Of a stretch of DNA of 64,000 nucleotides, positions 18,692 to 61,500 are shown piece after piece. The notes below the pieces were generated by a model. The model was not told the DNA's origin. It did not search any database and saw only the letters and a program-made list of their open reading frames with translations. Position numbers and translations under genes: made by a program. Numbering within the stretch: the stretch's first letter is position 1; each line of letters begins with the position of its first letter. Source of the DNA: Eledone cirrhosa (Eukaryota); contig OZ024752.1 in assembly GCA_964016885.1 (NCBI GenBank), positions 31,062,001 through 31,126,000 of the forward strand, in the 5' to 3' direction.

Positions 18692-19228
18692 AAATAAAAT
18701 ATTAAACAAATAATGAATAAACAATTCCTTATATTAAACAAAAAAAGTTCATTATTTAACGATCGTTTCTAGGATATATATGTGTTAGAATTGGTATGCA
18801 TATTCAACAGATCTATGTACAAAATTATACAAAATTATACAAATTATCAAGATTAAATATACATACCAAACACATATATACGCCGTCTTTATTTCTGAAG
18901 ACGGCGTATATATGTGTTTGGTATGTATATTTAATCTTGATAATTTGTATAATTTTGTATAATTTTGTACATAGATCTGTTGAATATGCATACCAATTCT
19001 AACACATATATATCCTAGAAACGATCGTTAAATAATGAACTTTTTTTGTTTAATATAAGGAATTGTTTATTCATTATTTGTTTAATATTTTATCTTGACT
19101 CTGTATACCGTTTATCTTTCACCGAAAGTGGTTTTTCATTACATCTCTTCTTTCCATGATATCCGGAATACATTGAGTTCTTCATACGGATTGGACACTA
19201 CCGTAAACTCTTGGTAGATTTATCTACA
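18692..19228 (+). mobile_element. Fold-back element (about 400-bp palindrome 18692-19093 plus 3' tail)
   Basis: Arms are reverse-complementary (ORFs 18785- and 18796+ translate almost identically). Embedded in (TA)n. Confidence 0.9.
18889..19035 (+). ncRNA. Type I hammerhead ribozyme with a very long stem II
   Basis: TTATTT-CTGAAGA-[about 115 nt hairpin]-GAAA-CGATCG-TT-AAATAA. Stem I is 6 bp; stem III is palindromic. Confidence 0.7.
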
Positions 19229-20959
19229 TATATTTATATATATATATTTATATATATATATATATATTTATATATATATTTATATATATATTTATATATA
19301 TATATATTTATATATATATTTATATATATATTTATATATATATATATTTATATATATATTTATATATATATATATTTATAGATTTATAGATTTATATATA
19401 TATATTATAGATGAGATTCTACAGAACTAGAATTGTTTTATTCTTTAGAAATCATCAGGAATCTGGGTATCAAAAAATAAGTATGGTATTTATAGGTCTC
19501 TTCAAGTGGTAGGAGAGGGTGGGGAGTGGGATCGGTGTAGGTCATTGGTTGATAGAAAAGGGAATTCATTAAAAGCTAATTCTTCAAAGCTATAGTTTAT
19601 TTTTAGAGTAACAAAGGCAGAAAGAATTCTATAAACAAGTTCAGGATGGGGTGCCACTCCTTATTTTTAAGTTTCTCTTAAGCTAACAGGTGTCTATAAG
19701 ATCAGTGGGGATCAGTCATGGTTGATGGATTTAAAGGAAAGGGAGATTCTTTAAAAGCTAAATTCTTCAAAGCTATAGTTTATTTTTAGAGTAACAAAGG
19801 CAGAAAGAATTCTATAAACAAGTTCAGGATGCACAAGAACTGCCCGAGCTGCATGCAGAAGAACTTCGCAACTTTCAAATACTTTAAGCCAGTGTTAAAG
19901 CCCGATGGCTAAAAACGACCTCCTCCTATTGGCCCCTATACCTCCTTCCCACCCTACCCCCACCCCTCCTCAACCTGAAATACGGCCACTATGGTTATGT
20001 GAGTACCTCTTACCTATCTGCATTTTCTGCCTGTAGAGCTGTTTTTATGTGCCTGTGTATATGCGTATATTTATTGAGTACTTATTTATTTGTATGTGTA
20101 TATATTTGTGTGTATGTGTGTATATGTATGTGTGTATGTATATGAATGTATATGTATGTGTATGTGGTTCTCTCTGTGTGTGTATTTATTTATTTATTTA
20201 TATATGTGTGTATATATGTATATATGTGTGTGTGTGTGTGTGTATGTGTATATATATATATATATATATATATATATATATATATATATGTATATATATA
20301 TGTATATGTGTGTGTATGTATATATATGTATATATATATGTATATGTGTGTGTATGTATATATATATATGTATATATATATGTATATGTGTGTGTATGTA
20401 TGTATGTATATATATATGTGTGTGTGTGTATATGTATGTGAGTATATGTGTGTATATATATATATATATATATATACGTGTGTGTGTATATATGTGTATA
20501 TATATGTGTGTATGTATATATATATGTATATATATATATGTGTGTATATATATATATATATATGTATATATATATATATATATATGTATGTATGTGTGTG
20601 TATATATGTGTGTGTATATATATATATATGTGTGTGTATATATGTGTGTATATGTGTATATATATGTATGTGTATACATGTATGTGTGCACATGTATGTG
20701 TGTATATATATATATATATATATATATATTATATATATATATATATGTGTGTGTGTGTGTGTATGTGTATATGTAGGTGTATGTATGTGTGTGTGTGTAT
20801 ATATATATAAATATATATATATATATATATATATATATATATATATATATATAAGTATTGAAATTTCCGTTGAAAACAGAAAAGGTCATAGAAGTGAAGA
20901 GTGCTCTATGTAAGTACCAGAGCAAAATTTAATGTATAAAAATCAATACAATATAATTA

Positions 20960-21029
20960 CCTCATTACCAGAGGTTTCCCGAATGAGGCGAATACGAAAG
21001 AAACGTCTTCATTCGTTCGTCAGACGAGG
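20960..21029 (-). ncRNA. Type I hammerhead ribozyme (family B)
   Basis: CCTCGT-CTGACGA-A-CGAATGA…TCATTCG-G-GAAA-CC-TCT-GG-TA-ATGAGG. Confidence 0.8.
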
Positions 21030-57778: not shown

Positions 57779-58480
57779 ATATATATATTTTATATATAAA
57801 TGAAAGGTATAGAAAGTATTGTAGCAAGAAGCCAACAGTAAATATATATATATATATATATATTTATAATTGTTTCTACGTTAAGCACAAGGCCAGCAAA
57901 TACCCAGTGTATTACTGGTACTTTATTTTATCGACCCCGTAAGGATGAAAGGCAAAAAATATGTGTAGTTTGTGTCTTTCATGAGCCTTGTATATGTTTC
58001 AGCTTGTTTCGTTGTGAAAGGTAACGAAATAGGCCAAATCCACAGAAAGATGACAAAACAGGTACAATTAATTTGTTAAATTCCTGTATATAATACAATA
58101 AAAGATATCAACAAGAATTTCACCAAACAACAATACTGACGGTACAATTAAACAAGCCACTGTGTATATACACACTCACACTGGCCATAGATGCAAAAAC
58201 ATATACATAACACTCCCAAACACGCACACCTTGTCAGTGAATAAGAAAACTGCTCCTGCTGCTATCACTACTACTATTACTACTCTTACTATTATTACTA
58301 CTACTATTAGTAGTATTGCTATTAGTATTACTATTACTGCTGCTGCTACTGTTTAAAGTGACTGCTGAACATTGTCGTTTTGTTATCGCCGTCACTAAAC
58401 ATTCAAGTGACGCCGTTGCATCAAACGGCCCAAACCTTTTTTTTTTCCTCTCTCCCCTTGTTGTTATTTTTTTTCCAACC

Positions 58481-58564
58481 ATGTCTCGAAGGAACTATTG
58501 GAGTAGAAATGAAATTAGTATGTTTATAAAATATACCTTGTTTTCACTCAACTTTCTATTTTGG
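58481..58564 (+). CDS. Tetraspanin (TspanC8 subgroup, TSPAN5/14/17/33-like), first coding exon
   Basis: CAACC-ATG context. MSRRNYWSRNEISMFIKYTLFSLNFLFW matches the TspanC8 N-terminus/TM1 (…EVSCCIKYFIFGFNVIFW) and is followed by a canonical phase-0 GTAAGT donor directly after the Trp codon. I found no exon 2 in the window. Confidence 0.9.
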
Positions 58565-61500
58565 GTAAGTTTTATATGATAAATTCTATAATATACACAT
58601 CTAGCTATATACACATCTAGCTATATACACATCTAGCTATATTCATATATATTTTCTTTGTATATATATATATATATAAACATACATATATATAAACATA
58701 CATACATACACACATTAAGTATATATATATATAGATAGAAAGAGAGAAAGAGAGGGATAGATATATATTGGGCTTCCTGATGATTTCTCCCGAATGAAAC
58801 AGTTCTAGTCCTGTAGAAGCTATTTCTATGTATTGATATGTATTGAGTACATAACTTACTGTGGCTACCCCCGATTGAACCCGGGGATAAACATATATAT
58901 ATATATAAACATATATATATATATACACACACACATTAAGTATATATATATATATATATATATGTAGGTAAAATTTAAAAGTGAAATTTTTTCTTTAATC
59001 CGGCAGAATGAATATTTATATAATTGTTACATTAAACGAATTTAAATTTTGTCATATATATAAATATATGTGTGTGTGTGTATATAATGTAGGAATGTTA
59101 TTGTTGTGGTACTATTACTACTGATAATAATTGTTTCTACTATTGGCACAGGGCCAGCAATCACACAGTACATTACTGGTACTTTATTTTATCGACCCCT
59201 TAAGATATGAAAGGCAAAGTTAACCTCGGCGGAATTTGAACTGAGAAAATGATCGGTTCTCATTTAGTTACCAATAATAATTCTGCTATTAGTTATATAT
59301 ATATACTCTCATTCTTTTGCTTTATTTCAAATTTCTTTGAATATATATATATATATATATATATGTATATATACACATACATAGAGAGCTCTCTTTCTCT
59401 CCATTCTCTAGTCTTTTAATCCCAGCTCCCTCCCTCTCATTTTGTTATTCTCTGCGGTACCATTTCTATTTCTAACATGCTACACAATTTAGATTTTCAA
59501 ATTTTCGCTTTGAACACGCAGCAATTTAAAAAAAAAAAATCTATTTTTATACAAGAAATTGTTATATCACAGCTCACAAAGTCATATATATATATGCACA
59601 CACACACATGCATATATAGATACATGATATATATATATATATATAAACACCCACCAAACAAAACAAGCTATATATATATATATATATATATATGTGTGTG
59701 GGTAATATCAAATATTATCCAATTACAAGTATGAAAGTAGCTCAATGTGAAATAAGTTTATTATAGAGCCGAAATACTATATATATATATATATATATAT
59801 ATATATATATATATATATATATATATATAGCTTAAACAAGCTATATATCTACCTTTCTTTATATGGCTTGTTTTGTTTGGTGGGTGTATATATATATGCA
59901 TGTGTGTGTGATGTAAATGTAAATACTTCGCAATTATTGCTATTAAAAAAACAATAACAACAACAACAAACCACAAATAAAATAGCATTTCTGTTTTCTA
60001 TGTTTATTTTTGGAAAATATTTTAAATATATATTTTCTTAATTATTTTTCCTTTCGGTGCGGACTTAGACAAGTGTCTGTTTGTCTGTCTCTTCCTATAC
60101 ATACATGTACATACATATCTTACTCACATGTATGTATGTATATATATATAAATGAAAATAGAGAAATTAATGTGAGCAAGAAGCCAACATATATATATAT
60201 ATATATATATATATATATATATATATATATATTTTGTTTTTTATTTAAGTTTAATCGATACAAAAATACACCGAGATTGTGTTTCTCAATTTTCTCGTTC
60301 TATATGCATGTACAAAATAGCAGTTTCTCTATTGATATTATCGGTATATATATATATATATATATATATATATATATATATATATATATGACGAAGGCAG
60401 TGTGGTAAGGGACCAGAAGGACCATAACGCACCAGAGTACTCAAAACTTAGGGTAGTAGAGTGGGTAATATGAAAATGTTAAAGACCCTCGACGGCTAAT
60501 TCTAGACGCTGCTTGAGCTCTGTCGTCGGGGTCTTGAACATTTATATATATATATATATGCCTTTATGTATCGTTTAAACTTGTAATATATATATAAGCA
60601 AAACATCTCTTATTCTTTCTTCTAACCAATATAAGCATTGAGCTGACTGAAACATATTTGGTGATATACTATCATATATAACTCTCTACATACATATTGA
60701 GTTATATATATTGAATTACCTTTGGTGTGTGTGTGTGTATATATATATATATATATATATATATATATATATATATATATATTTTTTACTCTTTTACCTG
60801 TTCCAGCCATCCGACTGAGGCCTTGCTGGGGCACCGCCCTTGTTGCCACACATTTTATCTCCAGCCTGTATTGGTTGGCCCCAATTGTGTAAGAGGGAGT
60901 TCGTTGCTGCTGCCCTTAGGTTTCCCTATATATATATTGTTGCCTGATGACCCTGTGATAAACAGGCGAAACTCCAGAATAACAAGACTCTATTTCGCCT
61001 TAATAAAATTTATATATATATATATATATACACATATATACATATATATATAAGTAGAAGTGGTATTTAATTTGTGCGAAGTCCGACAAACATAAATGTT
61101 TATAACTGATTTTTATATATATATATATATATATATATATTGTAGGTCGACTTTGCTTGGCCACATCCAAAGCTTCGATTTTACTAAGCTTCCACATATA
61201 TAAATATATGTGTGTGTGTGTGTTCTTCCGAAGAGTTTGTTTTGGTAAAAACAGGAGCAAGCAAGGGAAAGCTCTCAACATTCGTAGTTTGTAGTTACGA
61301 TGGAGATTCAATAAACATTAATAAAGATGCTGAACGATTTATGTAACTTCAGCATTTTTATTAATGTTATTATTATAATAATATATATATATATATATAT
61401 ATAATTGTAATATATATATATATAAAACGAAGGAGGTGTGGTAAAGATGGACCATAACGCACCAGAGTACTCGATACTTAAGGTAGTAGAGTCGGTAATA

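Follow-up and report, generated by a model that had tools for sequence, protein, structure and literature searches.

The Eledone window and its motif

The analyzed stretch of DNA (64,000 nt of contig OZ024752.1 from Eledone cirrhosa, assembly GCA_964016885.1, positions 31,062,001 to 31,126,000 of the forward strand; the window below) is AT-rich (GC 0.34, approximately 21% microsatellite), with many short repeats ending in (TA)n and a few broken Penelope-like element (PLE) open reading frames (ORFs). A first-pass annotation had noted a TTGAGTRCT-like motif in several of these repeat families, considered otherwise unrelated. Rather than being linear, this motif forms the 3' strand of a bulged hairpin, which is conserved and specific to one clade (Hydra) of PLEs. 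Families A, B, D and E keep the letters of that annotation, and the remaining letters were assigned here.

All eleven 9-mers cited in the annotation are present with the correct position and strand. Written as THGAGYRCY, the motif has 28 matches in the window, 22 of them 25-90 nt 5' of a TA run, compared with means of 5.4 and 0.45 (maxima 12 and 2) in 200 dinucleotide shuffles with microsatellites kept in place, and the positional enrichment over background is thus confirmed. The looser form THGAGYNCH yields 42 matches, 30 of them so positioned (17.7 and 1.6 in shuffles), while the reversed motif, used as a control, has five, none before a TA run. These counts refer to the window, plus reads, and not to the whole genome. 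The motif contains a near-palindrome (GAGYRCTY) that echoes on the opposite strand, and the loose form also matches a short interspersed nuclear element (SINE) and the loop of stem III of the family D hammerhead.

The context ascribed to the motif is partly correct. It lies close to the TA run, but the distance from its first base to the first simple-repeat run is 38-84 nt over the cited sites instead of the claimed 30-60 nt, family A (69 nt) and the site at 42361 (84 nt) being too far. It was also placed downstream of a hammerhead ribozyme. At the pattern level, a type I hammerhead with a whole core is found upstream in families A, B, E, F (site 27284) and K, and with a variant core in family I (site 52856), but family D retains only the 3' half, and none is visible in G (42361) and H (19173). 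Family D copies (e.g. 31858-32050 and 46908-47074) are all 5'-truncated in or near stem II, the first catalytic box never being present, and the palindromic loop of stem III mimics the motif. Finally, the flanks were said not to align between families. In BLAST they indeed do not align, except for the pair E/E2, nested neighbours, SINEs located next to the sites, and hits no longer than 34 nt. However, an upstream RCTC that pairs with the motif is common to most sites (9/11 cited ones; missing at 57320 and 58843).

The bulged hairpin and its covariation

The hairpin follows the scheme RCTC-stem-loop-stem-UH-GAGY-RCY, that is, a 4-bp RCUC/GAGY base helix, a 2-nt UH bulge on the 3' side, a variable upper stem-loop, and an unpaired RCY. 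The base helix covaries (ACTC with GAGT, GCTC with GAGC), and the inner stem, always separated by two bases on the 3' side, differs between families, being TAC/GTA in D, TGT/ACA in B, CGT/ACG in F, TAAGG/CCTTA in G and CAA/TTG in A. The loop length varies from 2 to 61 nt. A descriptor of this fold has 23 matches in the window versus 2.8 +/- 1.8 in 60 shuffles.

To assess pairing, sites were selected in a structure-blind way, by the 3' strand and the TA run only, in the window and in the loci from L122 on. This yielded 47 sites in 29 clusters; six clusters with a bulge starting with C, mostly opposite-strand echoes, were excluded, and the first-listed member of each of the remaining 23 was tested against the nearest RCTC. 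In 17 of the 23 families RCTC occurs at most 45 nt upstream; there, the first pair is always Watson-Crick (A-T or G-C, 17/17), and 44 of 51 inner positions are paired, compared with 19.9 in shuffled data (none of 20,000 shuffles as high). With a bulge of 0, 1, 3 or 4 nt instead of 2 nt, only 6-13 of 51 inner pairs form. About a dozen distinct inner stems occur, and among comparable 9-mers elsewhere such a hairpin is found in 12 of 228. Since MAFFT misregistered hairpins of unequal length, the count with a covariation tool covers the 8 of 22 copies of equal length, where 98% of cells are paired and eight double-sided changes are seen. An alternative rule, selecting the best-pairing CTC, misassigned three of 36 5' strands and was biased to pairing; hence the nearest-RCTC test is the one relied on. 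The probability of the base helix exceeds 0.5 in 26 of 36 short contexts (the three misassigned cases included).

Variation within a family has the same pattern. When reads and contigs of four runs were mapped on one family D copy, the listed variants with a frequency of at least 5% affected the loop at five of its six positions and the bulge at its second base; of the 16 paired positions only one was hit, by a C>T change that retains a U-G pair. This bears on the notion that the motif is a functionless remnant of shared ancestry. In its favour, the carriers probably all come from one clade; still, the flanks are unalignable while the pairing, the bulge and RCY are kept across phyla, and the stems are spared within family D, which makes this the least credible of the explanations considered.

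When the sequence-only pattern RCTC..GAGYRCT was searched in five whole assemblies, three of these had no excess of it over the reversed control, and therefore both structure and position are needed for detection. Matches to this pattern in G004:C92 and G004:C240 are spaced by about 2.4 kb and 1.41 kb, indicating long-period tandem arrays. Among the Rfam matches listed for the window (150 of 267 rows) and for five loci, none reaches the gathering score, and most are of microRNA type.

The sites of the window are collected in Table 1, where H1 denotes the first of the two hairpins of an intact junction (see below). Besides these, the region of approximately 10200-13300 is duplicated directly (period about 1.63 kb) and bordered by SINE pieces.

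Table 1. Hairpins, unpaired motifs and PLE ORF fragments of the window.
Feature	Positions	Strand	Remarks
H1, family D	31981..32007	+	cited at 31999; tail-less D copies end at ~31975, 5-6 nt before
H1, family E	22867..22888	+	cited at 22880; hammerhead core 79 nt upstream of motif
H1, family A	26164..26186	+	cited at 26178; hammerhead core at 26060
H1, family A	48140..48162	+	cited at 48154; inner pairs 2/3
H1, family F	27276..27314	-	cited at 27276-27284
H1, family G	42340..42369	+	cited at 42361; 5-bp inner stem; no hammerhead visible
H1, family H	19098..19181	+	cited at 19173; loop of 61 nt; end of inverted short arm near 18694
H1, family B	24662..24685	-	GCTC/GAGC type; hammerhead core at 24775
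H1, family I	52816..52864	+	cited at 52856; GCTC/GAGC type; 3' of Hydra-type ORF fragment
Motif without 5' strand	57320..57328	+	compared with sister copy 47390-47412
Motif without 5' strand	58843..58851	+	compared with family E copy 22867
H1, family J	6268..6296	+	not in the first-pass annotation
H1, family K	24224..24260	+	GCTC/GAGC; upstream hammerhead; end of inverted short arm near 23348
H1, family B subfamily	20900..20923, 46162-46185	both -	
H1, family D, long arm of inverted pair	17226..17252	-	
H1, family D, further long arms	34127-34153, 47007-47033, 49189-49215, 60436-60462, 61466-61492	-, +, -, -, -	
H1, family D, unpaired copy	62698-62724	-	
H1, family A, long arms	34474..34495, 55210-55232, 25686-25708	all -	
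Hydra-type PLE ORF fragment, broken	51853..52362	+	CxCX5C linker, start of GIY-YIG
Hydra-type PLE ORF end, broken	15503..16140	+	CxCX5C linker, GIY-YIG
Neptune-type PLE ORF end	29481..30116	-	CxxC linker, GIY-YIG; control, 3' end without hairpin

Clade assignment of the carriers

Both Hydra-type fragments of the window and their homologues have the CxCX5C linker, the defining feature of the Hydra clade, before the C-terminal GIY-YIG domain; RMRWK, the form of the RWK motif here, is present in P0050 and P0056, and TA runs are found at the element ends. Hydra-type ORFs occur as host DNA in three assemblies (G005, G002 and G009), whose loci provide direct linkage between hairpin and ORF. One G005 element is nearly identical to the coral consensus Hydra-2_Amil. 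Among the 22 ends behind Hydra-type ORFs in these assemblies, inspected by eye, 10 carry the hairpin (two with an irregular inner stem) and eight stop just before it.

A comparison with published PLE consensus tails of other taxa had been proposed in the first-pass annotation: among the six Hydra consensi in File S7 of PMC8557442, inspected by eye, the canonical hairpin is seen in three (Hydra-2_Amil, Hydra-2_Ajap and, twice, Hydra-1_Ajap). Ten motif variants have eight matches in the whole consensus archive of that paper, four in these hairpins and four elsewhere, the latter not at element ends in the archive passages concerned. The hairpin is conserved across phyla, with carriers among coral-like, clam and sea-cucumber elements, including the published sea-cucumber and coral consensi. 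No relatives were obtained from viral contigs.

The hairpin-bearing families likely all belong to the Hydra clade; for the ORF-less families of the window we infer this from the hairpin they have in common. As the hairpin is clade-specific, the carrier families are distant relatives rather than unrelated.

Neptune was considered as a partner clade and rejected, as no descriptor match beside a hammerhead is found in 90 Neptune-type loci (out of 121 public-contig loci; L090-L098 and L100-L121, 31 loci of one assembly, were left out). The descriptor has two matches in 91.8 kb of 3' flank, one in 96.3 kb of 5' flank, and 14 in 358 kb of the reverse strand. A hammerhead-like call is present in the 3' flank of 23 of the 90 loci, though some of these calls may be false and some ends tail-less. 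In L034, L048 and L036 a short CACTTAGAGTG inverted repeat lies about 55-65 nt behind the hammerhead of Neptune-type 3' flanks; the CACTTAGAGTG repeat is possibly an analogous signal. The Neptune-type ORF end of the window, whose closest named homologues come from Argonauta (52-53%), lies between inverted repeats (28130-30880) with a hammerhead of a TTGAAAA core variant, i.e. the U3-A8 change described in a passage of PMC4209133, and a similar TTGAAAA-like variant is present near 46700 on the minus strand.

Two hairpins and the ends of the elements

Intact junctions between the pseudo-long terminal repeat and the ORF have a common order: H1, a spacer of about 35-40 nt, a second hairpin (H2), about 20 nt, and the start codon. 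Two hairpins are found at three of four listed ORF starts (the fourth is cut by another insertion), and also in Hydra-1_Ajap. In L164 the order is hammerhead, H1, 40 nt, H2, 18 nt, ATG, and in L129/L140 it is H1, 40 nt, H2, 19 nt, ATG; in L149, H2 lies behind the tail sequence of its family.

The ends of genomic copies fall just before these hairpins. Copies stopping before H1 are found for 14 of 32 family labels and were not found for 17 of the 31 labels other than L; short-end rows of family L were dropped as an artefact of the TA run in the query. In 12 of the 14 families the tail-less copies end 2-6 nt before RCTC of H1. Isolated rows with offsets of -2, 1, 9 and 12 arise where the alignment runs too far or stops too early next to TA-like bases. 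Reads agree for family D, where many copies end in TA at 31975, the position of the short end. Tailed copies end 4 nt (L129) or 5-6 nt (the family of L149) before H2, and such an offset also follows from the Hydra-1_Crog consensus, if its two ends abut. As the tailed ends lie just before H2, the tail consists of H1 and the spacer, whose length is the distance from the motif to the TA run.

All seven two-armed family D insertions are inverted pairs of one long and one short arm. The combination of 5' truncation, an adjacent inverted copy and a one-sided tail characterizes family D and is also found in A, H, K and E2. In the only family A pair where both arms are long (25.7 and 26.2 kb), the pair and its flanks are part of a larger mirror duplication; this duplication (approximately 25400-26470) is near-perfect, being either a later inverted duplication or an assembly artefact. 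In L129, a complete Hydra-type element (approximately 2515-2630, minus strand) has its 5' end at the base of H1 directly after a TA run and a tailed 3' end; it thus spans one unit length and an additional tail, which fits a tandem or circular template.

The annotation had interpreted the motif as a conserved cis signal serving reverse transcriptase (RT)/endonuclease recognition, 3' end formation or an internal promoter. The first of these functions is the most likely, albeit for a hairpin and not for a linear motif. An internal promoter or a 3'-end-processing motif would be consistent with the fixed place near the element end, and both PMC8557442 and PMC11167929 mention that the Penelope repeat has an internal promoter. 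However, the inner stem sequence varies freely with its pairs kept, the loops range from 2 to 61 nt, and genomic copies have two alternative ends 5' of the structure; for these reasons the promoter or processing role is not favoured, and we consider it very improbable.

Proposed mechanism

The reading we prefer, with a probability of roughly 0.6, is that the hairpin serves in RNA as a docking site that makes the RT start copying a few bases upstream. The endonuclease would cut both strands of a (TA)n target, and each free target end would anneal via the TA-like bases just 5' of one hairpin and be extended. Each hairpin would thereby set one of two internal RT start sites: priming at H2 would copy the spacer and H1, which form the tail, while priming at H1 would yield the tail-less arm. 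The two cDNAs, one per strand, would then join head to head. A more specific version, which we put forward only tentatively, is a two-hairpin ruler, where a protein dimer binds the two like hairpins and primes both cut (TA)n strands, each just before one hairpin. (An AlphaFold model of the Hydra protein, with mean pLDDT 55, was too poor and was not used.)

The hairpin or its near-palindrome might instead act in DNA, being recognized in the donor or an integration intermediate by the GIY-YIG nuclease, which would cut just upstream, so that the ends would result from cleavage. The 9-mer is echoed on both strands, and the end offsets are equally compatible with cutting and priming; moreover, the tail of the D. 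virilis element is required for endonuclease recognition, as relayed in PMC11167929, and a tail is ascribed to endonuclease-mediated resolution in a passage of PMC8557442. Still, nothing in a double-stranded site would call for separate arms to pair around a constant bulge on one side, RCT is followed by C in only 19 of 36 representatives, and Frangieh et al. mapped tail ends to RT start sites, according to the relevant part of PMC11167929. Sense-strand G-U pairs outnumber A-C pairs by two to none, too few to decide. Overall, we regard action in DNA as rather unlikely.

Less likely again is that the hairpins merely load the protein on its own RNA, for cis preference, assistance in hammerhead folding or, in the case of H2, translation control, with nearby TA-like bases setting the ends. 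Most ends are indeed at TAT/ATA stretches, in L164 and L129 only 18-19 nt separate H2 from the start codon, and the Poseidon hammerhead requires protein (as described in PMC11167929). On the other hand, TA-like stretches are frequent elsewhere in these AT-rich ends, but in 12 of 14 families the stop falls in the 5-nt window before the hairpin.

Several observations weigh against docking that directs the RT start, or against its generality. The hairpin is thermodynamically weak, the base helix being within the minimum-energy fold in only three of six segments in context, and the shared ancestry of the families inflates the shuffle tests, whose results are to be read as counts and not as probabilities. 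In the window, only family I adjoins a Hydra-type (and broken) ORF, H2 is absent, and the Hydra-type remnant at 15.5-16.8 kb has no hairpin at its 3' end (approximately 16767). Two of the 22 Hydra-type ends have a hammerhead but no hairpin, one is broken inside the hairpin, and one has no recognizable end. Among the File S7 consensi of PMC8557442, Hydra-1_Crog has a variant hairpin at both ends, Hydra-1_Amil a weak variant, and Hydra-1_Obim none visible by eye. Two families depart from the offset rule, E with 13 nt and O with 10 nt, every end is made imprecise by TA microhomology, and the H2 offset is based on two families (L129/L140, and L149 with the L148:9131 family). Finally, family C has long and short arms in three of three pairs with a different tail sequence and no hairpin; hence, the hairpin is not needed for this architecture in other clades, which would use other signals.

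Two of these regions have further features. The remnant (15503-16880) has a hammerhead with a long stem II, and both its mirrored 3' ends stop at the same base. Family C forms hammerhead-bearing inverted pairs (35404-35830, 41630-41900 and 43620-43950), whose tails have in common an ACACACG-ATT-like sequence rich in AC, similar in this respect to the AC-rich start region described for Poseidon.

PLEs are the closest relatives of telomerase, and the preferred docking function matters for how they recognize their own RNA and leave a one-sided tail and inverted arms. A clade-wide covarying hairpin at a fixed offset to both ends defines exact mutants; it is also a marker that assigns ORF-less, TA-embedded repeats to the Hydra clade and fixes consensus boundaries. 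If the two-hairpin ruler is true, the H2-primed arm re-copies H1, and the element regains a recognition signal located past the point where its own copying starts. Such a ruler would account for the presence of the tail on one side only, for the inverted orientation of the arms and for the requirement of tandem copies; it would also supply a portable tag, about 25 nt long, with which the start point of a telomerase-like RT could be programmed.

Comparison with known systems

Small RNA structures that position an RT on its template are familiar from other elements: RTs of the R2 and L2/UnaL2 long interspersed nuclear elements (LINEs) read 3' stem-loops, and telomerase RNA has boundary hairpins. 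Unlike the LINE structures, located inside the copied region, each hairpin described here sits immediately past the start site, outside the sequence copied in the event that it would direct.

A close parallel is Poseidon of Anolis carolinensis, compared here by description only. According to the relevant parts of PMC11167929, two internal RT start sites bound its tail, both target strands are cut and extended, and a dimer is predicted; the minimal RNA reaches +172 and the starts lie at +111 to +118, so that about 55 nt of RNA beyond the start sites are needed, the protein-binding motif being given there as unmapped. As in these tails (also Fig. 2 legend of PMC8557442), the tail here extends, optionally, one of the arms in inverted insertions that are 5'-truncated, with two alternative 3' ends downstream of the hammerhead and an AT-rich target. 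The differences are that the Poseidon/PLE tail is 30-40 bp long, with an AC-rich stem-loop in one element, whereas the tail of the present elements comprises H1 and the spacer and is longer, and each of their ends is accompanied by a covarying hairpin across phyla.

Short non-coding repeats with type I hammerheads are also characteristic of animal non-LTR (long terminal repeat) retrozymes, which are related to Penelope terminal repeats (as described in portions of PMC7229834 and bioRxiv 10.64898/2026.07.22.740005). Those form head-to-tail arrays, whereas here dispersed inverted stubs are found, and no head-to-tail array of at least two hammerhead units exists for any of these families in the window; the window copies may be truncated ends of coding elements.

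The element class itself is known. The Hydra clade of PMC8557442, which includes an Octopus member, has the same CxCX5C linker, C-terminal GIY-YIG, canonical hammerheads and (TA)n insertion, but only the hammerhead is annotated in the sections concerned, and the word 'hairpin' does not occur in the main text. No description of the hairpin was found in the literature searched, which did not cover Repbase notes and older subscription papers (Lunse 2017, Pyatkov 2004, Schostak 2008, Arkhipova 2006). The hairpin is a real structural signal, apparently undescribed so far, in a known class of elements, and a function is likely.

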